Assembly: GCA_025611195.1 (NCBI GenBank)
Contig: GCA_025611195.1_4718.2
Strand: one strand, 5' to 3'
Length of the DNA: 64,000 nt
Origin: a phage
How positions within the stretch are numbered: the stretch's first letter is position 1; each line of letters opens with the position of its first letter. This document shows positions 38,168-54,065 of the stretch, in pieces. The notes below the pieces were generated by a model. The model saw only the letters and a program-made list of their open reading frames with translations, ran no database searches and had not been told where the DNA came from. The translations under genes and the position numbers were made by a program.

Positions 38168-38806
38168 TTAACCTAATTTACCACCGGCGATATTGGTGAA
38201 ATCTTCGCCATCAGGAACTTGCAGTAGAATACGTGCCATGTCCCAGTTGGTTAATGTGATTGCTTTATCATCGATACTCAGTTCTGGTAGGTCGAGTTCA
38301 TGATCATCAAACTCGTAGGAAATACTCCACGTTTCATCTGTTTTAGGATCTGTCATCAATACACCGTCTGTCACACGCATGTAGTCCGGATGCAGTTCAT
38401 TACTGAACGTACTGAACGGATCGGTGTAACATTCAGCATACCCTTCGATCTGCTGACGCTGTGCCTTCGTACGTAATTCAGGGCATGCCATAATCAGTTG
38501 TCGAGATATGCCGTTTGCAGCACGGAAGTCTTCCACGGTGTTACATGGCATAACCACATCGTCATGGAAGATGTTCTCCGATTGTCTCAACAGCGTCTTA
38601 CGGAGTTCAGCATAGTTTATCTGATTGAACGCATCGAACGTTGCTAACGATTCAGCGTAAAAATGCTTTACGTGTTCGCTTGCGCCGCCGAGGCTATTCA
38701 TCAACTTGTGACCATACTCCATGAAGCTTTTATCGAGACCGGAGGACATTTCTCCGAACCTCAGTGCACGATAACTGTCTCGTCCACCTGTAAATATTTG
38801 CGCCAT
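38168..38806 (-). CDS. hypothetical protein (212 aa)
   Basis: ORF track. Confidence 0.5.
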   Translation of the reverse strand: MAQIFTGGRDSYRALRFGEMSSGLDKSFMEYGHKLMNSLGGASEHVKHFYAESLATFDAFNQINYAELRKTLLRQSENIFHDDVVMPCNTVEDFRAANGISRQLIMACPELRTKAQRQQIEGYAECYTDPFSTFSNELHPDYMRVTDGVLMTDPKTDETWSISYEFDDHELDLPELSIDDKAITLTNWDMARILLQVPDGEDFTNIAGGKLG

Positions 38807-38821
38807 TACAGGCGTCCTCCT

Positions 38822-39061
38822 TTAGCAATGGTTGTTAGTTGCTTCTATTTCATCAAGATACGGTTCTACGTCATCGCCCTCCACGAATTCGTTGAACCAA
38901 CAGTCAATGGTAGAAATAACCGGTGACTGGTGTTCACATTTCTTAGATACCTTAAAAGGTACGTTATTATCCATCATACCGAGTTCGGGTCGAAAACGCC
39001 CGAAATGTTTCGCAGTCCAAATGTCTGGGACGATATGGTTGTTCATCGTGGTGTTCAGCAT
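38822..39061 (-). CDS. small ORF immediately 3' of the intron region; possible downstream exon of the beta-prime-like gene
   Basis: ATG at 39061 with GAGGT RBS; MNNHIVP and LGMMDNNVPF weakly resemble the beta-prime segment following the catalytic loop (MAVHVP, LMMSTNNILSP). Confidence 0.35.
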   Translation of the reverse strand: MLNTTMNNHIVPDIWTAKHFGRFRPELGMMDNNVPFKVSKKCEHQSPVISTIDCWFNEFVEGDDVEPYLDEIEATNNHC

Positions 39062-39064
39062 GAG

Positions 39065-39740
39065 TCGCTACCTCATACCCGCAGCTTTACCTGCAGCTTC
39101 CGGTGTTACCGGAATGTCCAGAATACATCTTATCCATATTCCAAATGGAACGTAGGACTTCCGCGCTGGATCTCGCTTGAGACCACGTATTCGTTGAACG
39201 TTCTCCTGAACGGAGCTTCGCTGCTGATCGAACATTGTCGTGTACGGTAGGCATCCCCGAAGGGATTGTCATTGAAGCCGCGTACATCCGCTACCTTGTT
39301 TCTACCTTATCGGTTCCTCTTACGAGGCGTAGCGGCCTTAGCCCTTCCCAGCAATTCACGGAATCCAAGCTCTTCCTTTCGGAAGGCAGGGCCTATGATT
39401 AAGCATCCCCGTCGCTGTTATCGACTATATCTTCATCCTCGTTGCGAGGAGTCTCCCGTTTGGGTCTGTGTTTAACAGAGCCTACTCTACTCAACATCGC
39501 GTCTTTCGATAGTCTGTGAGCACACATCTTAACGAACATTCGTGGATTCCTAAACAGGTGAACGTTCTTGTTGAGATGCTTCGCTGCGGATTATTCCCGT
39601 CCTACCTCTTTTACCGTACCCAGTTCATTACGCTGGCCCTCATCTATGTCACCATGATGAGTTGGTGTGTAGTCCGATTACAGAAACTTCCCGTCAATTA
39701 GAGAGTTTTAACTACGTTCCTGTTACCAGAAACCAGATCC
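39065..39740 (-). ncRNA. group I intron-like element B (approximate boundaries)
   Basis: Minus strand carries Q-like AATCCGCAGCGAAG (39592-39579), R-like GCTCACAGACTATCG (39521-39507) and S-like GAAGATATAGTCG (39433-39423); no long ORF. Confidence 0.5.
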
Positions 39741-39814
39741 CGACGGTATCAATAAATCAACGTAAGTTATTGATTTAATTGAAAAACTGAAATCTGCATT
39801 ATCTAAATCTTCAG

Positions 39815-40185
39815 TATGGTTCGCTACTCCATACCCGTACCTCATGTACTGCTTACGTCTTTCACGTAAGGATAGACTATATCTTTCACCCTCAGCATTA
39901 TCTGGTCGGGGCTCCCATTTCGGCGGTCAGATGACCGGTGGTTTCCCACGCCGCTTGGCCCTAACGCCCGTAAGCGATAGTCGTTGAGCACATCTCCGTT
40001 CTGGAGACTTCGCTGCGGATTCCCCAATCCTTGCCGCTTTTACCGTACCTGAATGATTAGTTCAGCCCCACGCTCTGTTCCCAGGCATGGTTGGTGGACG
40101 AGGCTCTAAGTAGGTTCCCGCATTAGAGAGTTCCTCGTAACAACATTTCTGCGTTACTGGGCCTAACGACCCTTTCAAGATCATC
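39815..40185 (-). ncRNA. group I intron-like element A (approximate boundaries)
   Basis: Minus strand carries P/Q-like GGTAAAAGCGGCAAGG...AATCCGCAGCGAAG (40044-40008), R-like GCTCAACGACTATCG (39987-39975), S-like AAAGATATAGTC (39885-39875) and a P9-like hairpin CTTACG-TGAAAGA-CGTAAG. Confidence 0.55.
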
Positions 40186-41411
40186 ACGCTTAACCCGATG
40201 GTGTTATCCTGCGGATCGCGTTTAACCTTGGTGATTTCAAGACATTGGTTACTGCTTCGGTCAAGTGATGGGTTTCGAACAAAGCCGCACACAATCCCAT
40301 CGAACGGTGTATCAGCAATAAGCTCATCATGCAGCTCGCTCATCATCGGATGATAATTACGGACATGTTCCGCAACGAACGCACGTGCTGCTCTCGGTGA
40401 ATAACCGCGATGGAATAACTTGGATTGGATATGTTCTTTATTGGTTAAAGTAAATGGTGCGTATGGGAAATGCAGATGATAATAACGATGGTTCGCTGTT
40501 ATCGAACTGATTACGGTACGCGTGGTGAATGGATGTAATGTACCTAATATGTTTTTACGCGTGATACCTTTCTTCTTACCGATGAACTCATCGAAAATCG
40601 CCGCGTGGTATTGCAGCAGCTTCAATTGCACTTTCGCCATCCAGTTTTCTTTCTTTCTGGCGCTCAAAGGTGTTGTTGGATGATAGATACTATTCAGTGT
40701 ACCAATAGCATCGATCGCACCTTCCATTTTGCTATCTGCATAACGGCCGGTCGGTGTATTTTCGATAACGAACATCATGGCCGCAGGAAAGCTGATATAC
40801 TGACTGAAGAACTTATCACGATGGATACGGATGAATTCTCGTAGCGTGTCAACTTTCTCTGTGTTCTTCGGTCCACGTAATGTGGGTCCTTTATACAAGA
40901 TCTCCATGATGCGATCGAAGTTCTGTATAAAGCTATTTACACCACGCCGTATCCCGAATACATCAAATTGCTGCTCCAGATAGTTCTTGAGTTCAATGGG
41001 TCGTTTTACATTTGGACGGTAACTGGCATCAATGAGCCACGTCATCGTTTCGAAGCTTTTGATATTCAACTCGCTTGCCAGCACGAGATGGACCAACGGG
41101 TTAATGAACGCATCGATTCCTTCAGGGACACGCGCCCAGACCGTCGAACGAATCTCCTGTTCTGCTGGGTAGGTTACAACCGTTTTACAGTTTGGACACA
41201 CCGTGCCGAGCAACTCACCGCGATTGTAGAAACCACAACCACATTGTGGCGTGATATCCAACGTATCGCTGGAGTAAACACGGGTGATAAAACTGTTTAA
41301 TTTCTTCTTCTCTTCGACGACTTTTGTATCGTAATCGTTCAACAAAATCGGCGTAAAGGGAAGTTCTGCGAGCTGTCTATCGAAACTCACGATATCGAGC
41401 ATGATGGCCAT
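40062..41411 (-). CDS. RNA polymerase beta-prime subunit, N-terminal portion; 3' end of this ORF probably reads into intron A
   Basis: Zn-binding CGCGFYNRGELLGTVCPNC; GKKKGITRKNILGTLHPFTTRTVIS aligns with beta-prime [24 protein letters not shown]; ORF ends before any DFDGD catalytic loop. Confidence 0.6.
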   Translation of the reverse strand: MAIMLDIVSFDRQLAELPFTPILLNDYDTKVVEEKKKLNSFITRVYSSDTLDITPQCGCGFYNRGELLGTVCPNCKTVVTYPAEQEIRSTVWARVPEGIDAFINPLVHLVLASELNIKSFETMTWLIDASYRPNVKRPIELKNYLEQQFDVFGIRRGVNSFIQNFDRIMEILYKGPTLRGPKNTEKVDTLREFIRIHRDKFFSQYISFPAAMMFVIENTPTGRYADSKMEGAIDAIGTLNSIYHPTTPLSARKKENWMAKVQLKLLQYHAAIFDEFIGKKKGITRKNILGTLHPFTTRTVISSITANHRYYHLHFPYAPFTLTNKEHIQSKLFHRGYSPRAARAFVAEHVRNYHPMMSELHDELIADTPFDGIVCGFVRNPSLDRSSNQCLEITKVKRDPQDNTIGLSVMILKGSLGPVTQKCCYEELSNAGTYLEPRPPTMPGNRAWG

Positions 41412-41453
41412 GGGACATCTCCTACAAATGAAAAAGAACGTTAGGACGTATAA

Positions 41454-41477
41454 GGGAGGGAGGTTGCCCTCCCTCCC
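41454..41477 (-). terminator. GGGAGGGAGG-TTGC-CCTCCCTCCC hairpin
   Basis: 10-bp perfect GC-rich stem with 4-nt loop downstream of the stop at 41504. Confidence 0.6.
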
Positions 41478-41503
41478 GTCAGATTACATCGAACGTTCTT
41501 CCA

Positions 41504-43399
41504 TTAGAACAGGTTGAATGCTCCACCCATGTTGTTACCACCAACATTCGGACGATCGCTACGTGCATAGATGTTGCCGGAGATGTTACCCAGACCACGA
41601 GCACGTGCTGCTGTGTTACCACGAACGGCGGTACCTGCCAGATGCTGGATGTTCTCAGGACGGATGGTGAAGCCAGCTTCGGCAGCCGCTTCAATCAATG
41701 CCGCAAGCGCATTCGGTTCGAAATCGTAACGCATTGCCCAACCGGTTTGTTCCCAGCTACCAGACAGAACGCGATCGATGATTTCGTGACGAGCAACAAC
41801 ACGCTGAGACATCGACATATCGGTACGGTCGAAGCTGTCTTCCCAAGCTTCTACGGTATCCGGGTTAGTGATGTTCATCATGTACAGATCGTCCATATCA
41901 CGAATATCGTGACGGTTACCGTCCTGGTGGTTGTAGTGACCCAGCGGGATACGGTTACCAGTAGCGTAGACTAACGGTTGGCCGTATTGATATTTCTTGC
42001 TGAAGCAACCCAGGGTGGTATCATCGAATGCACGATAGAGTGCTTTATAGCCTTCGGAGATTTCTTGAACTTTACCGTCAACGTTGCCCGTAAAGATCTT
42101 CTCAGCTGCAGGGATCATACGCAGCAACCAGCTATATTCGCCTTCTTCCGGTACGTCGATAGAAATCAGCAGAGACGGATACAGTACCTGTTGCAGGAAC
42201 TTGTAAATCTGCTCGTTGGTTTGAGTAGACAGATCCAGCGGTGCAGTAACTTCCGGATCCAGTACCATCGCCAGAGCACCCGGGTTATGCGGACCAATAC
42301 CACGAGCAGCGTTGCTGATTAAAGACTGCGCCCACGCCATACCGCTGTTCAGCGTAGCGATGGTACCAATCAGACCCAGCACAAACGTGTTCGGAGTGAA
42401 CGCATCCAGCTCCAGCGGGTAGGCGCTGGTCATCACGTAACGCGGTTGGTACTGTACAGTCGGCGGTACCGGATAACCGTTAACCAGAACAGGACCTTGG
42501 TTGAAGGTCGGGTTCTGCGGGCTGTAGGTCAGGTCAATGTAACCAGTGGTTGCGACCAGGCGCTGTTGACTATCGTAATCGCTCATCGCTTGACGGATAC
42601 GGTTAGAGATAGTTACAGTGATGTCAGAACGCACTGGGTTACCGACGATATCGCTGTCCTGCATACCGCTGGTGTTGTACTGAACGCTGCTGATCGGCTG
42701 ATCGCTTGCCATCATGCCCAGGTTGAACTGCGGCAGACCCAGTTTATCGCCGAGACGGATTTCGATCGCGGTTTGGATTGCGTTATCTGCAGCAGACAGC
42801 AGGGTGGTTGCCAGATGCGCAGATTCAGCAGTGATTTCATTGGTCACCACAGCCAGACCGGCGATACGAACAGTACCGTTAGCCTTACCGCCAATAGCCG
42901 CATACATTGCCGCCATGACTTCGTTGATGAACGTGCCGTTCAGGTTATCAACCCAGGTACGCGGTACCAGAATGTTACCATGCGGACCTTGTTCTTCACG
43001 ACGCGGCAGCGGAGCCAAACCGGCAACCAGCGGAAGCACATAACCGAAGAAGTGGTTATGGTCACCAACTTTTGCACCGCTCATAACAACCAGGGTCGGA
43101 TACGGTACACTGTACTGGTTAGGATCGACGGTCACCATGATGAAGTCGTCTTTGAACCCTTTATCTTCCAGTTCTTTCTCCATCAGACGACGGAGATTCA
43201 GTACCTGCTCGGAGCCAGTATTACGGCTAATACGACGGCTCAGTGTACGGTTGATCGTACGCATCGTATGAGTTACTTTAGGCTGGCCAGCAAAATCTGC
43301 AGCGGTTTCCAGCGCCTCATCAGCACGTTGTGCGGTGCGGGTTTCAGCTGCACGAATTTCTACATTATCGTTACCGTTATTACGTACGTCTAAGCCCAT
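41504..43399 (-). CDS. candidate chimallin (ChmA) phage-nucleus shell protein; alternative: major virion structural protein
   Basis: 631 aa with low-complexity N- and C-terminal tails; AAGAGGAA RBS; TATATTAC early-promoter motif upstream; strong terminator downstream; PhuZ encoded 8 kb away. Identity not verifiable by eye. Confidence 0.4.
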   Translation of the reverse strand: MGLDVRNNGNDNVEIRAAETRTAQRADEALETAADFAGQPKVTHTMRTINRTLSRRISRNTGSEQVLNLRRLMEKELEDKGFKDDFIMVTVDPNQYSVPYPTLVVMSGAKVGDHNHFFGYVLPLVAGLAPLPRREEQGPHGNILVPRTWVDNLNGTFINEVMAAMYAAIGGKANGTVRIAGLAVVTNEITAESAHLATTLLSAADNAIQTAIEIRLGDKLGLPQFNLGMMASDQPISSVQYNTSGMQDSDIVGNPVRSDITVTISNRIRQAMSDYDSQQRLVATTGYIDLTYSPQNPTFNQGPVLVNGYPVPPTVQYQPRYVMTSAYPLELDAFTPNTFVLGLIGTIATLNSGMAWAQSLISNAARGIGPHNPGALAMVLDPEVTAPLDLSTQTNEQIYKFLQQVLYPSLLISIDVPEEGEYSWLLRMIPAAEKIFTGNVDGKVQEISEGYKALYRAFDDTTLGCFSKKYQYGQPLVYATGNRIPLGHYNHQDGNRHDIRDMDDLYMMNITNPDTVEAWEDSFDRTDMSMSQRVVARHEIIDRVLSGSWEQTGWAMRYDFEPNALAALIEAAAEAGFTIRPENIQHLAGTAVRGNTAARARGLGNISGNIYARSDRPNVGGNNMGGAFNLF

Positions 43400-43463
43400 T
43401 TGGGATTCCTCTTTTCTTAAACTTTATTAAATGACGTCATTGAATCAGCTTCTACTCGCTCAT

Positions 43464-43488
43464 TCACCTAGGTAATATAACCCTGAAA
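43464..43488 (-). promoter_or_regulatory. candidate phage early promoter (minus-strand TTTCAGGGTTATATTACCTAGGTGA)
   Basis: TATATTAC-core motif 65-90 nt upstream of the minus ATG at 43399. Confidence 0.5.
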
Positions 43489-43653
43489 TTTTTTTCAATA
43501 TTGGTGTAACCACATTGAACGATATAAACCCCTAGGCGAACGCTGCCGAGAAGCAACATTCTTTCTACATATAATCAGGATATGTCTGTAAACTTTTACT
43601 TCTCTTATTGAGAGTAATGTCATATCCGTTTACCATCTTCTTACGGAGTTCGT

Positions 43654-44748
43654 ATGTTTCGTGTTTTAAATAACCTCCCGCGAACATCATCGGGTGTGCA
43701 ACCCGTCCCTCAGAAAGACTATCTAATACGCGAAGTTCAAAGAAACCTACAGACAATCCAGAACCACTATCAGGGTTTTACCTTCGCGGTTCAGAGCGAT
43801 CACATCCTTGCGTTGCTGCTCGCACAGCTCCCTATGAGATACGACATCTCAGTACAAACTTACTACGACATGATTCTCGATCTCACTCCAGAATTGGGTA
43901 ATCGTGTTAAGTTGACAACATCAAGATACGCGGGTAAGTTATTCGACGGTGCTTTCTATCCAGGATTGCATGAAGCTATTATCGCAACCGGTGAAAGTCG
44001 TCTTATTTCACGTGACGTTCTTGACAACTGGCGTAATTGGTCACCAGTTAGAATCGTGACGCACCCATACGCAAATCTTCGTTACATTCCTCTTCACCAA
44101 AAGCAGGTTGAGGAAGGACGAGGTTTTGCGGTCATTATGGTTGATGTACCATTATTAGCACTACAGTATCGAATGTGGTCTTTGGTCATGGGTCATAACG
44201 TCGACGGTAAATGGGTGGTTAAAGAGCCGGTTACAAGCTTCCTTGCGAGTTTTCCGTTGGTTAACGCATTATACTCACACAACGATATTGTTATACGTAA
44301 CCGTTGTTTGTGGGTGTCTCCGGCTAAGAATCCACTCAAATCACCAATTTACGTTAACGACCTTGATAACGTATTCGACCAAGTCGTTCTGTCCGTACAG
44401 CATCATTTATTACGAAGAAGACGAAGCTACACCGACATGCTTAAACAGATACCGAGTTTATACGGAGATCAGTACCAAGCGACCCGAATGGGCTACACTG
44501 TCGATCTTCGACAAACGCGATGGGCAAGAGATCTGGGTTGTCTGTCATTATGGCAACAACTCGTCACATTGCAAAACGTATCCGAAAGCGTCGGGTTCAG
44601 CAGCCAAATCGATAACGACCTGTACCGTGCTGCCGACCGGAGTCTAAAAGAAGGTAACTGGGAATCTTCTCCGTTACCTGGCGATTTAAGACGTGAAGTT
44701 ATTGCACAGGTTGCCGACCTCTTAAAAATTCTTCCTGCTGGTGCATAA
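43654..44748 (+). CDS. hypothetical protein (364 aa)
   Basis: ATG at 43654 with GGAG RBS; divergent from the chimallin-candidate gene. Confidence 0.5.
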   Translation: MFRVLNNLPRTSSGVQPVPQKDYLIREVQRNLQTIQNHYQGFTFAVQSDHILALLLAQLPMRYDISVQTYYDMILDLTPELGNRVKLTTSRYAGKLFDGAFYPGLHEAIIATGESRLISRDVLDNWRNWSPVRIVTHPYANLRYIPLHQKQVEEGRGFAVIMVDVPLLALQYRMWSLVMGHNVDGKWVVKEPVTSFLASFPLVNALYSHNDIVIRNRCLWVSPAKNPLKSPIYVNDLDNVFDQVVLSVQHHLLRRRRSYTDMLKQIPSLYGDQYQATRMGYTVDLRQTRWARDLGCLSLWQQLVTLQNVSESVGFSSQIDNDLYRAADRSLKEGNWESSPLPGDLRREVIAQVADLLKILPAGA

Positions 44749-44767
44749 CCACCTCCTTCTTTCCACG

Positions 44768-44799
44768 CATCCTCCCAACCCGTAAGGGAAGGGAGGATG
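44768..44799. terminator. CATCCTCCC / GGGAGGATG hairpin between convergent genes
   Basis: 9-bp stem between plus stop 44748 and minus stop 44815. Confidence 0.55.
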
Positions 44800-44814
44800 G
44801 GGTGGTGGGTTATG

Positions 44815-46968
44815 TTATTCTGCAGTTTCTTGCTTCGGTAAATAACTTGCTGCGATGTCTTGGGCCAACAATGTATTGTTTTTATTCGAGATGAAAATAC
44901 CGTAACTTTCCATTAACGCATAATACGAACGAACGAGCGTAGAGATCAGTCGACGAATATCCATACCTTGAATAAAGATATCAGGAAGCCCGGAGGCTTC
45001 GATCACTGGTAATGGTATCGTTAAGTTGCTTATCGTTTTCTTATCGTTACGTACAATCCAATCACGGAAACGTTGTTGTAACCCTTTATCCTCCCAGGAA
45101 TCAATCCAATCATTAAGAAGCGTTTTGTTCTTCGTCGCCAACGGTACACGAACCCCAACATAAGGTGGTTCGGGGCAATGGCCGTACGATTGAGCAAACA
45201 CTTCTTCCCACATATCGTAAGACTGTTTCGTTACCGCAACATGTGGTTTCACTTTAACACGTGTTAAGAAATCCGGATCGCCACGTTTCATTGATTCAAC
45301 GATTTCGTTCTCTAGTGAGATAATATCGTCAAGAACCAATCGAATGCTGATCTTCTCATTACGTAACAGCTTATCCATTATACCACACATCATGCGTTCA
45401 ACACGTTGGACGATTATTTTTGGTGCTGACGCATCACGCATAACAGGACCTTTCAACTCCAGCTTCGGTGGGTTGATGGGAACCCCTTCACGCATGGTCA
45501 TGTATCCGTAATAGTTTTTACCCATCGAGGTTAACGACAGAATTAAGAACATATATTCGTTCTTCATTTCCATTACGTACATATGCTCTTTCGCTACACC
45601 GATATTACCAGAACACATCGCCATCAGATGAACCGTAATCTGCGTAACCAGATAGATAAGCGTGTTTGCTAAGCGCGTCGAAATCGGATTGATCTCCATA
45701 TTTCCAAATCGCCACTGAACCCACTCCTGGCAGGTAAACACCGTCGAGTCGGTATCAGACAACACACCCACTTCACGGATTGCTGACGGAAAAGCATAAA
45801 CACCAGCCGGTTGGTTCTCGGTACGCCAGAACGCCTTAATTAAATCAGCGTAGCTTTGGATGCGTTGCAACATTAATTTTGTCGTTGCTGCAGTAAGACG
45901 ATAACCAAGTTCATTTCCTTTTTCTAGCGCTACGTAAATCGCTTCCCCGTTCAAGAACTCCGTGCATTGTGCTGTAATCCAAGCGACCGTGTTGTTATCC
46001 ATGGAAGCAATAATGGCTTTAGCCTCTTCCATCGTTTCAACAGGCTCGGATGCCAGTTCACATAACGAGTCAAGAAAATCTCGAACAAATTCAGGATTAA
46101 GCTCACGTAACGAGTACAGGTTATTGCTGTACATGTAGCAGGCGCGTTCCAACGGCGTTAAACCGGTAATTAGCTCCCGGATGGTCAGTTCTTTCTCTGG
46201 GTCGAAAATATATCGATGCAAGCATTTCGATACGTTAGCCCAAACCTCTTCCGGTGTAGGGTAATGCAGTTTGTATTTTACCATTACCTGCTCAATGGCT
46301 TTACGATCGCTGTTACGGACAATGCTCACAATGTTTTCAATTGCGATATCGCAATCGTAATAATGGAAATTACCCGCAAGGAAGCGTTCGTTGTTCGCAT
46401 TGGCTGAACCTGAAGCACAGCGACATGTTGTCGTTAAACTTGGATGCGCGATCGGATTATAAAAAGGGTTAAACTTGGATGCCTGTGTTCCTGATAAACT
46501 GTTGTTGTCTAACTTGGTGTTGGTTTGTCGTTTATCGTGTAACTCAGCTTCGTCTTTACGTCCATGGGCTTGCGCTATCGACATTTGTTTCTTTTGTTTC
46601 TTACGCAACTTACCGTTTTCAACCGCAAAGTCGCTTAGCACACTGGAACGTGTTTCACGCGGATAACAGTTAGCCCATACCGGCGTGATAATTAAATTAT
46701 TTTCTTTAATATCATTGAAGTATTGGCTGAACTTGATGACTTCTTTTTCTCGGTTTCCTTCAGTACGCTGTGTTAGTACAAGGCAGTCGGGATCAACCAT
46801 CCCGTATTTTCCACCAGGACTAACCGTATCAAGAACAAACTGCAACGCTTCCCGCTGAGAAATCCCACGCATGCGCATTAAGAACAGGGTATAATCCTGT
46901 ACCGCTTCTTTGGTCATATCCAACGTACGACCATATCCGTTTTCATCGTAAAAGAACGGATTTTCCAT
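44815..46968 (-). CDS. hypothetical protein (717 aa)
   Basis: ORF track; contains an SDTDS segment but no other polymerase motifs could be confirmed by eye. Confidence 0.55.
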   Translation of the reverse strand: MENPFFYDENGYGRTLDMTKEAVQDYTLFLMRMRGISQREALQFVLDTVSPGGKYGMVDPDCLVLTQRTEGNREKEVIKFSQYFNDIKENNLIITPVWANCYPRETRSSVLSDFAVENGKLRKKQKKQMSIAQAHGRKDEAELHDKRQTNTKLDNNSLSGTQASKFNPFYNPIAHPSLTTTCRCASGSANANNERFLAGNFHYYDCDIAIENIVSIVRNSDRKAIEQVMVKYKLHYPTPEEVWANVSKCLHRYIFDPEKELTIRELITGLTPLERACYMYSNNLYSLRELNPEFVRDFLDSLCELASEPVETMEEAKAIIASMDNNTVAWITAQCTEFLNGEAIYVALEKGNELGYRLTAATTKLMLQRIQSYADLIKAFWRTENQPAGVYAFPSAIREVGVLSDTDSTVFTCQEWVQWRFGNMEINPISTRLANTLIYLVTQITVHLMAMCSGNIGVAKEHMYVMEMKNEYMFLILSLTSMGKNYYGYMTMREGVPINPPKLELKGPVMRDASAPKIIVQRVERMMCGIMDKLLRNEKISIRLVLDDIISLENEIVESMKRGDPDFLTRVKVKPHVAVTKQSYDMWEEVFAQSYGHCPEPPYVGVRVPLATKNKTLLNDWIDSWEDKGLQQRFRDWIVRNDKKTISNLTIPLPVIEASGLPDIFIQGMDIRRLISTLVRSYYALMESYGIFISNKNNTLLAQDIAASYLPKQETAE

Positions 46969-47042
46969 AAATCCTCCAAAAGTTATTTAGTCTGTCTACA
47001 TCATCTCGTATATCTGTTAAAAAAGAAGGACGGCATAAAAAG

Positions 47043-47070
47043 AACCGATCCAGCCGAAGCCAGATCGGTT
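47043..47070 (-). terminator. AACCGATC / GATCGGTT hairpin followed by U-tract on minus strand
   Basis: 8-bp stem, 12-nt loop; minus-strand downstream sequence CTTTTTATGCC...CTTCTTTTTT; lies about 195 nt beyond the stop at 47265. Confidence 0.45.
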
Positions 47071-47264
47071 TAAAGGATAATAACTGACAGAAAGATATCG
47101 ATGATGTTCGTGAAACAAGATCTTCTCTCGTGTACAATGATGCCAGATCAGAGGGAGGTTGTAACACGAGAGGTGGTTCGCCAAAGAAGGAATAAAAACA
47201 CGAACCTATCTTATTTCACTGATGGCACTAACCACTCAAAATATATAGTACTGTATGTAAAAGT

Positions 47265-47678
47265 TTACTGATTAATCAAGTCGTTAGCAACAATCTTGGT
47301 GTAACCTGCCTGATTAAGAATTTGATTAATTTTTGTCATGTCGGTTGCATCCTCGATAACGATGCTGGGTTTATAGATCAGCGTCTTGGTAACAACGATT
47401 GTACTCTCCTTAATCCAAGGAATCCCTAAAATTACATACTCGCCATCAGCTGTGATGACCTCGACGTAATTGTACTTCGTCGGATCGTTCGGTACACTCG
47501 ACGGGAGCCGGGAATAAATCTGTTGGTGAATGGCGTCCACATCACGGCCGTTACGTACAGCGGTACGATAATTGTACACCGCGCTAATTTCTACTCCGTT
47601 GAAGTTAACCCCAAGTTCTGGGGCGTACACATCAAAACTCACAACAGAGCCAATCTTTTCTAAATCAGAAGCTGGCAT
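47265..47678 (-). CDS. hypothetical protein (137 aa)
   Basis: ORF track. Confidence 0.45.
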   Translation of the reverse strand: MPASDLEKIGSVVSFDVYAPELGVNFNGVEISAVYNYRTAVRNGRDVDAIHQQIYSRLPSSVPNDPTKYNYVEVITADGEYVILGIPWIKESTIVVTKTLIYKPSIVIEDATDMTKINQILNQAGYTKIVANDLINQ

Positions 47679-47689
47679 AATAGCATCCT

Positions 47690-48211
47690 TTATTTAAAAA
47701 TGTATTCATACCCGAAAGTCGTCGCCGACCAGACCCGGATAGATGATAGTGTTCCACCACGATAAAACGTTTTTGTGAACTCCATATCCTGGACAACACG
47801 ATAATAAACACGTCCGATAATACGCACGATAAGATATCGTGATAACGATCTCTCCTCGCAGTACTCATCGATAAAGTCATCGTCGATATCTGATAAGACA
47901 ACGTCTGCGATTTCTTGCAGTAGATTCCTCATCAGCATCTGCCTTCCTTCGGTACCCCACCCAGACAAACAGTAGTCGTCTTCTGCTTGACTATAGATGT
48001 CGTTAACCGCCTGTTCGAGCAGTTGCTCAAGATAGTAGTCATCGCGCTTTATAACGTGGCGACGGCGCTCAGAGGCGTATTTTTCCATCCTGTGTTTCTC
48101 TTGTTCGGCGTATGTATTAACGACGCCACAGTCTTTTCTGGATCGTCCCACAATGCGCGACGAAAACTGGATACTACCATAACGGTAGGATAGATTTGTA
48201 CGACCTCCCAC
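47690..48211 (-). CDS. hypothetical protein (start uncertain)
   Basis: ORF track; N-terminal 40 aa overlap the upstream ORF in another frame, so the real start is probably internal. Confidence 0.4.
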   Translation of the reverse strand: MGGRTNLSYRYGSIQFSSRIVGRSRKDCGVVNTYAEQEKHRMEKYASERRRHVIKRDDYYLEQLLEQAVNDIYSQAEDDYCLSGWGTEGRQMLMRNLLQEIADVVLSDIDDDFIDEYCEERSLSRYLIVRIIGRVYYRVVQDMEFTKTFYRGGTLSSIRVWSATTFGYEYIFK

Positions 48212-48537
48212 CCGTAACGATGTGTGTTAGTCGTACGTCCGACATTGAACAGACATAACTGATTTAAGAAACAGAGCTGTATCTTTGTAAACAACACTGT
48301 GTCTTCACGTTTAACGTATCCGAGGATATAGGCATTCTCGAACGCCTCGCGTGACAAGACGGGGCGATTAAGGTACCGCAACGCTAATACCAGCAACGTT
48401 GTTATACGCAACGGATCTTCTGGGTCATTCATGGTGCTCAGCTCTGCTTGTAACCAGTCGGGGATAGTAACCGTCAGACGATAGGTATCTGTTCCACGAT
48501 CAACCACATTCAACGTTGAAAAAGGCAACATATCCAT
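48049..48537 (-). CDS. hypothetical protein
   Basis: ORF track; overlaps neighbours in different frames. Confidence 0.4.
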   Translation of the reverse strand: MDMLPFSTLNVVDRGTDTYRLTVTIPDWLQAELSTMNDPEDPLRITTLLVLALRYLNRPVLSREAFENAYILGYVKREDTVLFTKIQLCFLNQLCLFNVGRTTNTHRYGWEVVQIYPTVMVVSSFRRALWDDPEKTVASLIHTPNKRNTGWKNTPLSAVATL

Positions 48538-49075
48538 GAATTCCTTCTATCTCGAGGTTGTTCTCGCAGGTCTTGGGTAATAACCCACTGGCCGTTAACA
48601 TCTGTGTCATCGAGTAATCAAAGCACGGAAATATAAGGTTAACGGTTTCCTGGATCGCGTCAACATAACTATAAATGGCTTCATAATACTCACCATCATG
48701 ATCTACGCTAACCAGTTCCTGACACAGTTCTTCGCTTATCATTTCATATACCGGCGGATACCACGATTGAAATGGTCGCTGCATACGTAACGACCAGTAC
48801 TCGTACGTCGTATACTGAAGCACGTCATAAGCCGATACGTTAATGCGGTCGAAGAAAGCATACTTGTCCATATGCTGATACAACATCGCCAGTACGGTTT
48901 CCAAGCACACCGATATCCGCACGCCACCATCTTTCCCGTTAAGAAAATTAGGTTTCTGCCGATAACGCACAAATGCCGACGGCTTTGATTGTATTATTCC
49001 ACCACCAACCATAACGTCATACTCGTATCTAACGTAAAATTGAAATGCCACCAATCTTCTACACGTGGGATCCAC
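48500..49075 (-). CDS. hypothetical protein (start uncertain)
   Basis: ORF track. Confidence 0.4.
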   Translation of the reverse strand: MDPTCRRLVAFQFYVRYEYDVMVGGGIIQSKPSAFVRYRQKPNFLNGKDGGVRISVCLETVLAMLYQHMDKYAFFDRINVSAYDVLQYTTYEYWSLRMQRPFQSWYPPVYEMISEELCQELVSVDHDGEYYEAIYSYVDAIQETVNLIFPCFDYSMTQMLTASGLLPKTCENNLEIEGIHGYVAFFNVECG

Positions 49076-49479
49076 GTACGAAGAATCTGGTTAACTTCGC
49101 TTCGCATCACCGATAAACGACAACGAAAGTCGAACTTCTCATCATGACCGTAGTCTTCATGCATGAAAACTTCGTCCAAAACGAACTCAAGTTGCGTGTC
49201 TACATCACGACCGGAGATATTTCGTTTGTACAGATACAGTTCAATCGTGTCATAAAGCAACGTATGAATATCATAATTTCCGTTCGGCGAGAAATAAGGT
49301 AATCGCTCATCGAACATCGAAAACAGATATTCACTGTAGTTTAATAACGGGATGATGTACCGACGTCCGGTCTGTGGTGTGCGAATATGTATCGAAACCT
49401 GACTTGGACGCGGAATAGCCGACGGCTTAGAATCGTCTCTCTGAAATTGCTCTAAAGATCGCAACAAAGGTGGCCGCAT
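48994..49479 (-). CDS. hypothetical protein (start uncertain)
   Basis: ORF track. Confidence 0.4.
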   Translation of the reverse strand: MRPPLLRSLEQFQRDDSKPSAIPRPSQVSIHIRTPQTGRRYIIPLLNYSEYLFSMFDERLPYFSPNGNYDIHTLLYDTIELYLYKRNISGRDVDTQLEFVLDEVFMHEDYGHDEKFDFRCRLSVMRSEVNQILRTWIPRVEDWWHFNFTLDTSMTLWLVVE

Positions 49480-50056
49480 TGTAACTCTCCAACGCCCAAT
49501 TGTAAGGCCCTTCTAACATGTGTTCCCATACGTGAATAAACTCACTACCGAAGACAGGCTCCAGCGCCATGGTGAGATTCGTAAGTTCTGACGCGGCCGC
49601 ATGGTAAGCATCAACGTGTCTTTCCATTGACGGATCGTCTTCATTGAAAATACGTTCTGTGTCGCCAGCCCGTTCAATAAGTTCGGTAATGAGATCTGTC
49701 CATGTTTCGTGGCACGTCATCATTTCCTGTTCTCGACTTAGTATTCCGATGTCTGCGTGTACGCTGGACTCGAACCGGTCGAAAAGGACCCGAAGAACAT
49801 GCACCTTGTCGATGTATCTCACCGTTATCCAAGAAAGCGGTTGCCATCGACTCAGCGTCCATCCGGTACTCGGGAACCCCAAACTCATATAGTACGGGTT
49901 GCACGGGACCGAAGACGGAGCGACGCTGTTTAAATCGTTCCTTAATGGCAATGCCCTGTTTAATGTAAATGGGTTCATTGGCGAGTCGTTTCGCTTTTTG
50001 TTTTGCGTGAGCCAATCGAAGTTCTTCCAATTGCCCAAGCCATTCAAATTGTTCAT
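49427..50056 (-). CDS. hypothetical protein (start uncertain; 383-nt two-frame overlap with 49674..50651)
   Basis: ORF track; both frames are open across 49674-50056. Confidence 0.4.
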   Translation of the reverse strand: MNNLNGLGNWKNFDWLTQNKKRNDSPMNPFTLNRALPLRNDLNSVAPSSVPCNPYYMSLGFPSTGWTLSRWQPLSWITVRYIDKVHVLRVLFDRFESSVHADIGILSREQEMMTCHETWTDLITELIERAGDTERIFNEDDPSMERHVDAYHAAASELTNLTMALEPVFGSEFIHVWEHMLEGPYNWALESYNAATFVAIFRAISERRF

Positions 50057-50651
50057 CTGTTAGCTCCTGGGGACGTTCAACAATCGCGCCAGACGGGCAG
50101 ACATTGATCGTGATGTTAATTGATGGCATCGCCATCACTTGAGGGTTGCTATTACGTACGCGGACAACATGTTCGGTTGCTGATTTACGATCAACGCAAT
50201 ACTCTGTTTCTTGGAACTCAAATGCTTTTAACGGCGTTGGTTTTGTTTGACGTTTCTTAACACGACCAAGATCAACAATATAGGCATAATCACAAACACG
50301 TTCTATTCCGTAAATACGGTTATCCGACCAGTTCTTACCAAACAGCTTGTTGTGATGATAAGACAAATATTCGGTTACCATACCCTGAACAACATCGAAG
50401 TCTTCTCGAAAATCAGGTTGATACCAAATCGGACCGAGAATATCTGCGAACGATTCATGACGATATCGAGGATCATGTCGAGTCCAGGGCATTCTCTGAT
50501 TAAGATCGAAATCCACCAACAATTCCGTTAATTGCAGTTTTTCCTTCGGAGAAAGCTGGCGTTGATGATGCAAACTCAAGCAATCGATAAGTGGTAATGA
50601 AACCCACGATGCTAATGTGTACAAATCGATCCTGGCTAGTCTCTTGGTCAT
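49674..50651 (-). CDS. hypothetical protein (325 aa; C-terminal about 45 aa look non-coding-like)
   Basis: ORF track; Arg-rich low-complexity tail suggests read-through past a real stop or a frameshift. Confidence 0.45.
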   Translation of the reverse strand: MTKRLARIDLYTLASWVSLPLIDCLSLHHQRQLSPKEKLQLTELLVDFDLNQRMPWTRHDPRYRHESFADILGPIWYQPDFREDFDVVQGMVTEYLSYHHNKLFGKNWSDNRIYGIERVCDYAYIVDLGRVKKRQTKPTPLKAFEFQETEYCVDRKSATEHVVRVRNSNPQVMAMPSINITINVCPSGAIVERPQELTDEQFEWLGQLEELRLAHAKQKAKRLANEPIYIKQGIAIKERFKQRRSVFGPVQPVLYEFGVPEYRMDAESMATAFLDNGEIHRQGACSSGPFRPVRVQRTRRHRNTKSRTGNDDVPRNMDRSHYRTY

Positions 50652-50742
50652 ACTCTTTTCCTAAGTCCCCATTGTTTATACACACGATATCTGGGAATAG
50701 TTAAAATATACGGCGTAAAACGAAATAGGAGAGTTTCTGGCA

Positions 50743-51063
50743 TCATTTTCTCCCTCTTCGAATACCACCGATACCTCTTCGATCCAAGACGTCCCAAGCA
50801 CGCTTTATTTCCTCCTCCGTCGCTCTGGTATCTGGAGGAACAACCATAACACAATCGTGCAACGGCCAATGCGCGGGTCTGGGGTCAGCGAACAGATTAT
50901 CCCATTCAAGCGTCCATTCTTTCTTTGAACGATTATAGTAGAGCGTAAGATACGTGTTGGTATATGCTGGGTAACCACGCATAACTTCAATATTCTTACG
51001 ATCCTGGCGTTCCTGATTCCAGTCGTTAAATCGTTTTCTTATTTTATCCCACCACTCTCCCAT
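50743..51063 (-). CDS. hypothetical protein (106 aa)
   Basis: Start moved to ATG at 51063 (MGEWWDK) with AGGAGA RBS; the track ORF extends through the upstream terminator. Confidence 0.45.
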   Translation of the reverse strand: MGEWWDKIRKRFNDWNQERQDRKNIEVMRGYPAYTNTYLTLYYNRSKKEWTLEWDNLFADPRPAHWPLHDCVMVVPPDTRATEEEIKRAWDVLDRRGIGGIRRGRK

Positions 51064-51086
51064 GCTTTCTCCTACGCGGCATAAAA

Positions 51087-51106
51087 GCCTGCCCCGAAGG
51101 ACAGGC
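51087..51106 (-). terminator. rho-independent terminator (stem GCCTGTCC, UUCG loop, then UUUUAU on minus strand)
   Basis: Minus-strand GCCTGTCC-TTCG-GGGCAGGC-TTTTAT directly after the stop at 51117. Confidence 0.6.
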
Positions 51107-51116
51107 TCGATAGAAC

Positions 51117-51317
51117 TTAATAACCATCCAATTTCAATGAAGGATGGTTGACGATATGTGCGTGTTTTGCTGGGTCGTATGGCTGATATGGAAAATAGCC
51201 ATGCCACTGACGACCTTGGCATTTCGTACACAAGAACCGACCATCGCCACGCTGATTCTCGTAAGCGAGTTCAGTACTATCAACATGACCGCAACGTTCG
51301 CAGATAAACAGCGACAT
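51117..51317 (-). CDS. small zinc-ribbon protein (66 aa)
   Basis: CERCGH ... CTKCQG double CxxC. Confidence 0.45.
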   Translation of the reverse strand: MSLFICERCGHVDSTELAYENQRGDGRFLCTKCQGRQWHGYFPYQPYDPAKHAHIVNHPSLKLDGY

Positions 51318-51354
51318 AGCGCATCTCCATTCACTTGAACTTTTTGGTTCGGTG

Positions 51355-52335
51355 TTAGAAAAGCAAGAAACCGCTGTTCTTCGCTTCCGCTACAGTTTCG
51401 TCACCAACTTTCGGTGCCTGTTGACGCGCGTTACGATGTTCGATGTAACGTTTCGCTTCGTCAGCGATTTGTTTGATAATACCCCCTAAACGATCGGTAC
51501 TTAAAACAAACGACGTCGCTTCACGAATCGGGCTGCTTTCAGGCACAAAACCATCACAGCTGTAAATAGCGTTAACACCCATGACTTTAGTCGCGTCTTT
51601 CGGATAAAGCGTACAGAAAGCAATAGGACTATCGTTCTCTTTCGTCCAATCGTATCCCATGAACGTATTCAGTTCGGTGATCGTTGGTTCCAAACCGGTA
51701 ACACGCGGATGGTTTAAGAAGTTTTCCAGGTCGGCGCTGTCAAGACGACGGTTCTCGCCAGAAAACAGAACACAAAGCTGGCTAATAACAACCTGCACGT
51801 CCAGGTTGACATCCTGCTCCGATTTCCCATTTTCGCCATTCATGTGATAGCTAACAATCACCGGACGTTTCAATCCTTCTGCAGCTGCCATCAGTCCTTT
51901 AAAGGTACGATCGGCGTTGATCGTTTGACGCTCATCATCGAACGAGGCAACGATGCAACACACCACACGTTCACCGCGTTCCAGCAGGTTAGCAACCAGC
52001 GCAGGACCTGCAACAGAACCTGAACCACCGCTCAGACTAAAGACCACGATATTAAATTTACCTGGTGTATGCTTATTCAGAATACCTGGGATTTGTGAAC
52101 AGATCAGTTCAGCGTTCTCATCACGCTTCTTACCAGAACCGTCTAACTCACGACCCGCCGCATCTTTAAAGATGTAGATATGATCGTCGTCCAGTGCGCT
52201 ATCGCGTAGGTTAGCCCGGCTGGTATCAACATACGTCATGCTGTGTAATCCTTTCGCGACTTCGCCTTCAAACGCTGAGCCGATTTCGCCACCACAACCA
52301 CCAACAGCCCAAATATGTACTTGGTTCTCTTGCAT
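51355..52335 (-). CDS. phuZ: PhuZ-like phage tubulin/FtsZ-family GTPase
   Basis: N-terminal WAVGGCGGEIGSAF (tubulin T1-like GQCGNQIG) and FSLSGGSGSVAGP (T4 GGGTGSG-like) motifs; 326 aa; ATG at 52335 with AGGAG RBS. Confidence 0.75.
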   Translation of the reverse strand: MQENQVHIWAVGGCGGEIGSAFEGEVAKGLHSMTYVDTSRANLRDSALDDDHIYIFKDAAGRELDGSGKKRDENAELICSQIPGILNKHTPGKFNIVVFSLSGGSGSVAGPALVANLLERGERVVCCIVASFDDERQTINADRTFKGLMAAAEGLKRPVIVSYHMNGENGKSEQDVNLDVQVVISQLCVLFSGENRRLDSADLENFLNHPRVTGLEPTITELNTFMGYDWTKENDSPIAFCTLYPKDATKVMGVNAIYSCDGFVPESSPIREATSFVLSTDRLGGIIKQIADEAKRYIEHRNARQQAPKVGDETVAEAKNSGFLLF

Positions 52336-52399
52336 GTGAACTCCTAATTTAATATGTATTTAACGTACAATGAATCTTTCTTTGCTAAAGGGGTGACCC

Positions 52400-53242
52400 A
52401 TGGGTGCTATTGACCACAGTGTAGATCGTATCTGTCGTACAATACCGGCAGATATCCTACAGTATTGCTATATCGATCGTTACGACTGGCGTAATCGCTA
52501 TCCTCGTTCCGTAGAAGACATCATTACCGATTGGGTAATCCGTAAACGGGTTATCGGCGACATCGATATCTACGGGGGACTACAAACCGTTATTCCCCTT
52601 GATGATGCAGGTGTCACTATCGAAGAAGTCACCATTAACTGTTATGTTTTCCACATTCCGTTGGAAGCCACGCAGGGGCGTTATATCACGTCCGCATTAT
52701 CCATTATTTCAGGGAGCGTGAACAACTACGGAATAAACTATAACGGGCAATGGGGTGCTTTCAACCAAACCCAGTTTCAACGTCAGCTTTGTGGATGGAA
52801 CCCCGCAAGCAACGCGTTACAGCAAGGGATGAACGCTTTCGGTCCTATGAACGTTCTTAGTACAGCTAACGTTGATATCATCGCCCCTAACACCATCATG
52901 GTGAACAACGTCACGCCTGTACAATTTCCCCTGAGTCTACGTTGTTTCCTTGCCCACGATCCGGAACTTACTAACCTCAGCATGGAGGTTTGGAACGACT
53001 TCTACAAACTCTGTTTATATGCCACGCAAAGTGACATCTACAACAGAACCGTTATCCGTCTCGATAGAGGTGTTACAGCACAAGGACAAGAAGTCGGTGC
53101 ATTCAAGGAATACATCGATCGCTTTGCTGATGCTGAAAACACATATCAGGAATTCCTGAACGAAACGTGGGCAGGCGTTGCTGCGTGGAACGATCCGCAA
53201 ACTAAACGTCGCGCCATTCGACTACAAACCGGCTACTTCTGA
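52400..53242 (+). CDS. hypothetical protein (280 aa)
   Basis: ATG at 52400 with AAAGGGG RBS; divergent from phuZ. Confidence 0.5.
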   Translation: MGAIDHSVDRICRTIPADILQYCYIDRYDWRNRYPRSVEDIITDWVIRKRVIGDIDIYGGLQTVIPLDDAGVTIEEVTINCYVFHIPLEATQGRYITSALSIISGSVNNYGINYNGQWGAFNQTQFQRQLCGWNPASNALQQGMNAFGPMNVLSTANVDIIAPNTIMVNNVTPVQFPLSLRCFLAHDPELTNLSMEVWNDFYKLCLYATQSDIYNRTVIRLDRGVTAQGQEVGAFKEYIDRFADAENTYQEFLNETWAGVAAWNDPQTKRRAIRLQTGYF

Positions 53243-53769
53243 TTAACGACAGCTTCCTCCCTCGGTGTTTTCGAGGGAGGTATTTGCCGTTTGAACACTT
53301 TCAACACGTTCGCAAAATCAGCGGCAATAATACAGGCCGAGGTTGATAGCTTATTGCTGAAAATGAGATCGTCCGGTAAACAATCGAACTGAATACCATA
53401 TTGCGTCTTTGTCTCATCAACGATCAGTGACGGTGTCGATCCTGTCTTCGCAATATCGGTGATGTACAAACGTAAAAATAATTCACCATCTTCGCTATCG
53501 ATAAAACGATAAGCGTTACCGGAAAACGCAGCATACGGCGTAACGATAAATTGAACACGATCGTCGGTCGGGTGGATTTGTAACCAACGTGCGATATCAC
53601 CGTTACTCACATTTTGCATACGTAACACCGTGAATGCGAACAGTGTATCGTGATGCTTGGAATAATGCAGCACATACGCCGCATCTTTCTTTCTGTGAAT
53701 CCCTTCAATGTATTCTATTGTCGTGTAGCCTGATTTATATAGCTTTACTTGCGGTTTATCACTCATCAT
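53233..53769 (-). CDS. hypothetical protein (178 aa)
   Basis: Start moved to ATG at 53769 (ATGA coupling with upstream gene); 3' end overlaps the plus-gene end and contains the hairpin 53256-53280. Confidence 0.45.
   Translation of the reverse strand: MMSDKPQVKLYKSGYTTIEYIEGIHRKKDAAYVLHYSKHHDTLFAFTVLRMQNVSNGDIARWLQIHPTDDRVQFIVTPYAAFSGNAYRFIDSEDGELFLRLYITDIAKTGSTPSLIVDETKTQYGIQFDCLPDDLIFSNKLSTSACIIAADFANVLKVFKRQIPPSKTPREEAVVNQK
53256..53280. terminator. CCTCCCTCG / CGAGGGAGG hairpin at the overlap of convergent genes
   Basis: 9-bp stem, 7-nt loop, 14 nt after the plus-strand stop 53242. Confidence 0.45.
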
Positions 53770-54065
53770 AACAACCCTTCCCGTTTCATCGCGGCACGCA
53801 TGCTTGCGTAAAGCGCATTCTTCATTGCCCCTGGACGCAACGGATAACAAATCTCATACCGACGTCCTTGTTTTACAGCAATTTTCCTTCCGTTCAAAAA
53901 CAGTGTACCATTATCCAGCAGCAACTCACCTTGTAGTACCATGAGTCCTGCTTTAACATGACATCCTTCTTCTTTAGTTAAGACCTTATAGCCGTGTTTA
54001 TCCAATAACCACAATTCGTAGATACCATGCGCAGCCTTCGGCATTACTTTCTTCTTCGTCGTCAT
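53766..54065 (-). CDS. hypothetical protein (99 aa)
   Basis: ORF track. Confidence 0.45.
   Translation of the reverse strand: MTTKKKVMPKAAHGIYELWLLDKHGYKVLTKEEGCHVKAGLMVLQGELLLDNGTLFLNGRKIAVKQGRRYEICYPLRPGAMKNALYASMRAAMKREGLL

Follow-up and report, generated by a model that had tools for sequence, protein, structure and literature searches.

A close relative of the DNA considered here is the Escherichia phage vB_EcoM_Goslar, in which the major shell protein of the phage nucleus, chimallin (ChmA), forms a square lattice enclosing DNA, as seen by cryo-electron microscopy and tomography (Laughlin et al.). The ChmA core consists of an α+β N-terminal domain and a GNAT-like C-terminal domain, and the tail segments NTS, CTS1 and CTS2 dock on adjacent protomers, producing a flexible square lattice (Laughlin et al.). 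ChmA is essential: its knock-down in Goslar leads to arrest at the vesicle stage and a drop in plaquing of at least 10^4-fold (bioRxiv 10.1101/2023.09.20.558163). The Goslar-type phage tubulin, PhuZ, forms a filament vortex and not a bipolar spindle, and both the vortex and the rotation of the shell are abolished in PhuZ(D202A), in which Birkholz et al. mutated the aspartate of the putative GTP-hydrolysis site (PMC9891218). Goslar gp176 has been described as ChmC (bioRxiv 10.1101/2023.09.22.559000) and gp174 as PicA (bioRxiv 10.1101/2024.03.21.585822). Here, we describe a 64,000-nucleotide stretch of phage DNA (contig GCA_025611195.1_4718.2 of GenBank assembly GCA_025611195.1), referred to below as the window, which carries chmA, phuZ and, directly 3′ of chmA, a non-virion RNA polymerase (nvRNAP) β′ subunit gene that is interrupted by three group I introns.

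The window was compared with Goslar at the DNA level in three stretches, which were 97–100% covered at 92.9–95.8% identity and jointly account for 50 of the 64 kb. Positions 1–25000 and 39001–64000 were colinear with Goslar at 92.9% and 95.6% identity, respectively, while 41000–53000 formed a single aligned block with Goslar 170499–182501 at 95.8% identity. For positions 25001–39000, colinearity was established by gene-by-gene comparison with the Goslar annotation instead of by DNA alignment. An earlier sequence-only reading of the window had proposed a 631-aa candidate chimallin and a 326-aa PhuZ about 8 kb apart; both open reading frames (ORFs) exist as given, on the minus strand and separated by 7,956 bp, and the gene content of the interval is the same as in Goslar, with no gains or losses. 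Beyond this interval, chimallin and the core-genome blocks (split virion and non-virion RNA polymerase (RNAP), divergent DNA polymerase, ChmC and PicA) occur in the conserved order. The sequence identity, the colinearity, the family memberships described below and the retention of key residues are direct observations, and on this basis we consider, with a probability of about 97%, that the window belongs to a nucleus-forming jumbo phage with a lytic lifestyle (Chimalliviridae, genus Goslarvirus) that carries ChmA and PhuZ.

The 631-aa protein matched the Goslar chimallin structures (7sqt, 7squ and 7sqv) over residues 1–631 with E = 0, and is identical to Goslar gp246, labeled “nuclear shell protein” in RefSeq, at 609 of 631 positions (96.5%) over the full length. 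Two further solved structures, phiPA3 PhuN (8fne, 4e-21) and the 201phi2-1 chimallin (7sqq, 9e-12), were matched over residues 62–599, and the homology to solved chimallins extends across both the N-terminal α+β and the GNAT-like C-terminal domain, as defined by Laughlin et al. The protein also belongs to the chimallin family by the Pfam threshold (PF25677, Chimallin_Phikzvirus; 98.1 bits with the cut-off at 27, aligned to positions 11–591 of the 627 in the profile) and matched PHROG 4795, “nuclear shell protein”, at 1e-54. The low-complexity tails that had been claimed for it are present at both termini, and are rich in Gly, Asn, Ala and Arg; residues 1–61 and 582–631 align without gaps with Goslar ChmA, differing only at positions 596 and 621. 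The chimallin assignment is thus borne out, and what the sequence-only reading had called its weakest link is the strongest one. The order chmA to nvRNAP β′ is also found in Erwinia phage RAY.

The identification of the 326-aa protein as PhuZ holds equally. Its best match in the PDB was 9pm9, a “Tubulin/FtsZ GTPase domain-containing protein” (5e-218), which corresponds to Goslar PhuZ, as its aligned residues 2–326 show the same four differences from the protein of the window as RefSeq gp234, the Goslar orthologue labeled “tubulin PhuZ” (322 of 326 residues identical, 98.8%). The protein also matched phiKZ gp39 (3zbp, 4e-29), 201phi2-1 PhuZ (3r4v/3j5v, 8e-15) and PHROG 4733, “tubulin PhuZ” (2e-68, positions 1–321 of 323). 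The predicted GTP-binding loops were found exactly, with the T1 loop GGCGGEIG at residues 12–19 and the T4 loop SLSGGSGSVAGP at residues 100–111, and D202 is retained within RRLDSADLEN.

By analogy with experiments on the 96.5–98.8% identical Goslar proteins, the products of this module would be expected to assemble a shell, form filaments and rotate the nucleus. Transcription of chmA would occur early, at a phiKZ-type early promoter, and ChmA would self-assemble via its N- and C-terminal tail segments into a square protein lattice around the replicating phage DNA. GTP-dependent PhuZ filaments would then wrap and rotate the shell, presumably as the vortex seen in Goslar instead of a bipolar spindle. 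ChmC (mRNA handling at the shell) and PicA (selective protein import) would be part of the same system, and the nvRNAP subunits and the divergent DNA polymerase would act inside the shell along with them. Several points weigh against this interpretation. The ChmA variant in the window, whose function is assigned by analogy, has 22 residues that differ from Goslar ChmA, including two in the region of the C-terminal tail. The Pfam tubulin domain (PF00091, E = 6.7e-7) scored 30.2 bits, just under the gathering score of 33, as is usual for the divergent PhuZ clade. PhuZ is non-essential in the family and absent from some chimalliviruses (PMC11724907). Finally, the hairpin 3′ of chmA has no U-tract, and its role as a terminator is putative.

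The public protein records might suggest a bacterial source. An NCBI record with the exact ChmA sequence, HCP6916053.1 (“hypothetical protein [Escherichia coli]”), comes from a contig of 102,688 bp. The 249 members of the 90% cluster of this ChmA derive from assemblies of E. coli and Salmonella and from collections of metagenomes, and most of their contigs measure 235–260 kb; the exact PhuZ sequence is found on 75 contigs, with Shigella records in its cluster as well. With both exact proteins filed as hypothetical proteins of E. coli, Salmonella or Shigella, the window might be regarded as bacterial, i.e., as an E. coli chromosomal island or prophage in which the module is a domesticated or defective remnant. 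We consider this very improbable. The carrying contigs, some of them metagenomic, are 231–260 kb long, which is the size of a whole phage (Goslar, 237 kb), and all genes checked were intact and under purifying selection. A tRNA scan of the window found none, and no integrase was noticed, although only a minority of the ORFs were scanned for one. It is known, moreover, that genomes of lytic phages occur in bacterial assemblies (PMC12768965). Since there were no matches in 5,426 complete E. coli genomes, the records most likely represent free lytic phage genomes that landed in bacterial assemblies, and not prophages. Goslar-like phages are common, unlabeled passengers of enterobacterial assemblies and metagenomes.

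It could also be argued that the 326-aa protein, instead of positioning the nucleus as a PhuZ, is a tubulin for DNA segregation (TubZ-type) or for division (FtsZ-like): phiKZ gp39 was originally named TubZ (PMC3678025), and the Pfam match is limited to the generic Tubulin/FtsZ GTPase domain. The best matches, however, were all to phage PhuZ (Goslar, phiKZ and 201phi2-1), and a PDB search at E ≤ 0.01 listed no other tubulins (TubZ, FtsZ or CetZ). The protein is nearly identical to the Goslar protein whose filament vortex surrounds the shell and makes it rotate (PMC9891218), and no TubR/tubC-like partner was noticed beside phuZ in the ORF list and the Goslar annotation. We therefore give the TubZ/FtsZ assignment hardly any weight; the lack of a tubulin fold, which the sequence-only reading had named as the outcome that would overturn PhuZ, did not occur, given the matches to solved PhuZ structures. 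The corresponding outcome for the 631-aa protein, that it is a virion protein (an HK97-fold capsid or tail sheath protein) resembling chimallin merely in size and context, did not occur either and can be dismissed as practically negligible, being refuted by the PDB, Pfam and PHROGs matches to chimallin, which include the full-length near-identity to the Goslar cryo-electron microscopy structure and two other chimallins, with no capsid or sheath families found in Pfam or PHROGs searches of this protein.

Both proteins are under strong purifying selection, with ratios of nonsynonymous to synonymous substitution rates (dN/dS) relative to Goslar of 0.11 for ChmA and 0.04 for PhuZ. The value for ChmA is 3–25 times higher than the 0.004–0.04 obtained for the polymerases, PhuZ, ChmC, PicA, gp245 and gp233 (the gp233 orthologue is 99.3% identical to Goslar at the protein level), and ChmA is the fastest-evolving core protein of the set compared. 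Sixteen Goslar-like ChmA alleles had 40 variable columns, grouped in linked blocks: residues 76–90 (EKGDMT or YT[RQ]DFA), 436–445 (FNDGKQ, YKEGER or FNEGER) and 561–566 (ENA or DLQ). The blocks are combined differently among the 16 alleles, which indicates recombination among a few allele classes. Positive selection on ChmA was considered and not adopted, since dN/dS is still only 0.11 and the variable sites amount to a few recombining haplotype blocks.

The sequence-only reading had also described split multisubunit RNAP genes and, with them, the hallmark set of nucleus-forming jumbo phages. This description is correct: four RNAP-subunit genes (a gp55-type β′, a gp68-type and two β-type) are found in the window together with chmC, picA and the divergent DNA polymerase gene (Table 1). 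Pfam gave no matches for the β-type subunits, the gp68-like protein, PicA or ChmC, and these proteins were identified via PHROGs, the PDB and the literature. The genes for PicA, the gp68-type nvRNAP subunit and ChmC, which the earlier reading had not listed, are clustered about 10 kb from chmA. Between the DNA polymerase gene and phuZ lies a 325-aa ORF (49674–50651, minus strand), the orthologue of Goslar gp237, which matched no Pfam or PHROG families. Of all proteins in the module, it diverges the most (95.1% identity to Goslar, dN/dS 0.15).

Of the signals claimed around chmA, the ribosome-binding site, the early-promoter motif and, at the place of the terminator, a hairpin are real. The ribosome-binding site lies 7 nt upstream of the ATG. 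The hairpin, directly past the stop codon, has a 10-bp G+C stem, and the 71-nt region that includes it is very stable (−33 kcal/mol, z = −5.4, with none of 200 shuffles equally stable), but because it has no U-tract it was not listed by a simple terminator scan. For the early-promoter-like motif, the 8-mer TATATTAC, found at 43479–43472, 73 nt 5′ of the chmA start codon, was not significantly enriched in itself (four found against 2.2 expected; 13 of 100 shuffles reach four), whereas the extended 16- and 24-nt versions were. The 24-nt consensus TTCACGGYTATATTACYTANGTGA occurs in four copies against 0.00 expected, all on the minus strand, intergenic and 57–96 nt 5′ of a start codon. It agrees with the early-promoter consensus published for phiKZ (TATATTAC), 201phi2-1 (TTTRARR-BTATATTACDWHDGTG) and OBP/N1M2 (TTTCARRYAKATATTATYWAAGTG) (PMC7058600, Table 2). 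Within window positions 40000–54000, matches to sigma-70-type promoters were not enriched (20 found, 25.4 expected), as would fit a phage independent of the host polymerase, although this is not evidence for such independence. Terminator-like sites in the same interval were marginally enriched (15 found, 12.1 expected), and the strongest canonical terminator, at 47070–47043, coincides with the Goslar-annotated terminator 3′ of the DNA polymerase gene.

Table 1. Features of the window discussed in the text, in order of position.
Feature	Position	Strand	Evidence
24-nt motif copy, 5′ of HD-domain gene	13944–13967	−	
Split RNAP β-type subunit, Goslar gp165 orthologue	20682–22688	−	PHROG 3015, 9e-170; 99.4% identity
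Split RNAP β-type subunit, Goslar gp171 orthologue	24760–26928	−	PHROG 3295, 3.5e-180; 99.9% identity
picA, nuclear protein-import factor	28715–30301	−	98.5% identical to Goslar gp174
nvRNAP fifth subunit, phiKZ gp68 homologue	30303–31889	−	PDB 7ogp_B, 2e-28, residues 23–518
24-nt motif copy, 5′ of gp68-like nvRNAP subunit gene	31977–32000	−	
chmC, nucleus-associated RNA-binding protein	32132–32920	−	98.5% identical to Goslar gp176
24-nt motif copy, 5′ of small gp182 orthologue gene, function unassigned	37255–37278	−	
nvRNAP β′ exon 4 (last), 225 nt	39046–38822	−	Labeled “hypothetical protein gp185” in the Goslar record
Group I intron C, 355 nt	39401–39047	−	Rfam partial match; covariation; in Goslar too, unannotated
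nvRNAP β′ exon 3, 13 nt, CGACGGGGATGCT	39414–39402	−	Restores (F)DGDA
Group I intron B, 375 nt	39789–39415	−	Rfam RF00028; 97% identical to Goslar intron minus 1,065-bp HNH segment
nvRNAP β′ exon 2, 13 nt, ATAATGCAGATTT	39802–39790	−	Unique splice solution restoring YNADF
Group I intron A (ORF-less; not present in Goslar), 366 nt	40168–39803	−	Rfam RF00028; insertion relative to Goslar
nvRNAP β′ exon 1, 1,243 nt, ends ...ILKG + T	41411–40169	−	PHROG 2987; colinear with phiKZ gp55 (7ogp_A)
G+C-rich hairpin after chmA stop, GGGAGGGAGGG-CAA-CCTCCCTCCC, probable transcript boundary	41454–41477	−	Fold energy
chmA, chimallin (major phage-nucleus shell protein), 631 aa	41504–43399	−	PDB 7sqt; PF25677; PHROG 4795
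chmA ribosome-binding site, AAGAGGA	43407–43413	−	7 nt before ATG, read from sequence
Early-promoter-type motif 5′ of chmA, TTCAGGGTTATATTACCTAGGTGA	43464–43487	−	One of four copies of the 24-nt consensus
Conserved chimallivirus protein of unassigned function, Goslar gp245 orthologue	43654–44748	+	PHROG 3938, 4e-54; 99.5% identity
Divergent family B DNA polymerase, 717 aa	44815–46968	−	Pfam PF20286, 680 bits; Goslar gp244 orthologue, 98.9% identity
phuZ, phage tubulin, 326 aa	51355–52335	−	PDB 9pm9, 3zbp, 3r4v; PHROG 4733; T1/T4 loops, D202

The three introns of the nvRNAP β′ gene (38822–41411, minus strand) carry no endonuclease and lie inside the catalytic motif YNADFDGD. The ORF at 40062–41411 runs into non-coding sequence after “...GLSVMILKG”, where the uninterrupted homologues, RAY gp223 and Eowyn RpoBC, go on with NADFDGD and about 60 further residues. 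Relative to Goslar, the window lacks a 1,065-bp segment that holds the HNH endonuclease gene gp186 and has an additional 366-bp insertion. The HNH gene is carried by the Goslar copy of intron B, annotated in the Goslar record as Intron_gpI, and is missing from the copy in the window. In a local search, Rfam RF00028 matched intron B (39415–39781; 46.9 bits, E = 2e-10), intron A (39853–40189; 29.6 bits, E = 2e-5) and, partially, intron C (39159–39363; 16.7 bits, E = 0.18). None of the three reached the RF00028 gathering score of 50, and a search of the whole window at the Rfam gathering thresholds gave no matches. Parts of intron A (39803–40168) resemble introns within DNA polymerase genes of other coliphages: at about 70% identity, they match stretches of Av-05, 18-1-2 and TH18 that overlap HNH and DNA polymerase genes and, likewise at about 70%, sequences of Bacillus phages (SIOphi and SBSphiJ); an 88-bp piece (about 39934–40021) is 84% identical to Av-05.

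In the gene model, a U ends each 5′ exon and a G ends each intron. With all three introns removed, the predicted junction sequence across codons 410–430 is ...AAAGGGTATAATGCAGATTTCGACGGGGATGCTATGAAC..., and the predicted spliced product of 497 aa reads ...ILKGYNADFDGDAMNNHIVPD.... Whereas the unspliced ORF matched PHROG 2987 over positions 1–414 (380.6 bits), the match of the spliced product extended over positions 1–474 of 478 (445.6 bits). The product also aligned with phiKZ gp55 in the nvRNAP structure (7ogp_A; 1e-74, residues 21–476) without gaps over all three junctions. A last exon beginning at ...RLMLNTT was rejected in favor of a start at ATGAACAAC, because the spacer from DGD to the (L/M)D(M/L/N) motif is then exactly 25 residues long, which is also its length in RAY and Eowyn; the homologous 3′ hairpin of introns A and C was a second reason. 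We infer from these features that the introns are spliced. Considering the match of the spliced product to PHROG 2987 and phiKZ gp55, the Goslar “hypothetical protein gp185” would be the last exon and RefSeq gp247 a truncated model, and the RefSeq annotation of the Goslar nvRNAP β′ locus (L001 in our numbering) seems to be wrong. The last exon makes up 225 of the 240 nt of gp185 (NC_048170 167622–167861; L001 124–363), the first 15 nt of which belong to intron C. For gp247, annotated as “RNA polymerase beta subunit”, the model (NC_048170 169639–170910; L001 2141–3412) runs into an intron, and the second Goslar intron (L001 349–703) is unannotated.

We surveyed this locus in 12 genomes: the window (38822–41411), Goslar (L001, 349–3412) and ten relatives (L006–L015, about 2400–6000 each) that were retrieved via the neighboring 212-aa protein, an exact look-up of the window's ChmA in the contig index having given no hits. 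An exhaustive splice search was carried out for introns of 250 nt or more that have a U before their 5′ splice site, end in G at the 3′ side and, when removed, restore the peptide. It left a single solution for 10 of the 12 genomes. In the other two, L013 and L015, the last intron (site 1269; 5404–5760) is preceded by C and not U, as it follows GCC rather than GCT, so that the U/G boundary rule holds at 22 of 24 introns. Removal of the introns yields the same 1,509-nt coding sequence in all 12 genomes. There are five insertion sites within 27 nt, after positions 1243, 1251, 1254, 1256 and 1269 of the mature coding sequence, and these are occupied in seven architectures of one to three introns each. 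The window, L009 and L010 have introns at sites 1243, 1256 and 1269 and no endonuclease. L014 combines site 1243, with an HNH protein of 326 aa, with sites 1254 and 1269, while Goslar and L008 have site 1256, with an HNH protein of 336 aa, and site 1269. Sites 1256 and 1269 are also occupied in L011; L012 has only site 1256, with a different HNH protein (320 aa). L013 and L015 have introns at sites 1251 and 1269, and L006 and L007 at site 1251 only. The three HNH proteins share just 27–33% mutual identity.

An RNAalifold consensus of seven members of the intron C/D family contained 86 base pairs, 28 of which are supported by compensatory double changes, with almost none broken. The covariation support applies to the C/D family only, while the support for introns A and B comes from the Rfam scores. 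The covarying core, the U/G boundaries and the ORF that is intact upon removal are consistent with group I introns. Sites 1251 and 1269 hold paralogous introns (72% full-length identity), both inserted after the pentamer ATGCT, which would suggest that they spread through relaxed homing or reverse splicing. We propose tentatively, at somewhat less than even odds, that the cluster reflects an intron arms race among Goslar-like phages, in which each intron destroys the target of a relative's endonuclease and the triple-intron allele would be immune in a nucleus-sharing co-infection. A weaker companion proposal concerns ChmA, whose mosaic surface blocks, which evolve faster, may reflect selection for shell incompatibility between the same competing phages.

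The finding of chmA and phuZ is in itself already known, in that the Goslar shell, PhuZ vortex, ChmC and PicA have been characterized experimentally and both ChmA and PhuZ have solved structures. The sequence-only reading was correct in recognizing the signature genes of a nucleus-forming jumbo phage in the raw sequence alone, and the 249-member ChmA cluster is a ready panel of natural variants of ChmA and PhuZ. The intron cluster beside chmA is a more unusual feature than the nucleus module. A cluster of multiple introns of the Goslar type was not found described in the searchable literature, and its position at the nvRNAP active site would extend the “weaponized intron” story from phiPA3 and phiKZ to E. 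coli phages, in a setting with multiple introns and multiple endonucleases.

Compared with its closest known counterpart, Goslar ChmA (RefSeq gp246; GenBank gp189; PDB 7SQT/7SQU/7SQV), the ChmA of the window has the same length and retains the N-terminal tail, the core domains and the C-terminal tail. It also has the same neighbors, gp245 and the DNA polymerase gene on the 5′ side and nvRNAP β′ on the 3′ side. The 22 substitutions comprise the linked blocks 76–90, 436–445 and 561–574 as well as M596T and V621G in the C-terminal tail region. The chimallins 201phi2-1 gp105, phiKZ gp54 and phiPA3 gp53 belong to the same family and share the overall architecture, with distant similarity; CTS2 is described in the literature as shorter in the Goslar chimallin. 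The PhuZ of the window is likewise equal in length to Goslar PhuZ (RefSeq gp234; GenBank gp201; PDB 9PM9/9PMK), with identical T1 and T4 loops, D202 and C-terminal tail, and differs from it by four substitutions (T47A, G49D, E229D and S255N), while 201phi2-1 gp59 and phiKZ gp39 have the same family and architecture and only distant sequence similarity (E values from 1e-11 to 1e-29 for these chimallins and PhuZ proteins taken together). The early-promoter core TATATTAC is shared with the phiKZ-group phages. Group I introns with HNH genes are known beside the catalytic aspartates of chimallivirus RNA polymerases, for example in phiPA3 gp210, where an intron endonuclease lies in the virion RNA polymerase (vRNAP) gene (Science 2024, PMC11620839), and in the nvRNAP gp65-66 of phiPA3. 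As in phiPA3 gp210, the Goslar-like introns, with or without an HNH gene, sit beside the conserved catalytic aspartates of a chimallivirus RNAP subunit. In contrast to phiPA3 gp210, the target is the β′ subunit of the non-virion polymerase, there are up to three introns per gene at five sites within 27 nt, and the introns in the window, which lack an endonuclease gene, leave exons of only 13 nt between them.

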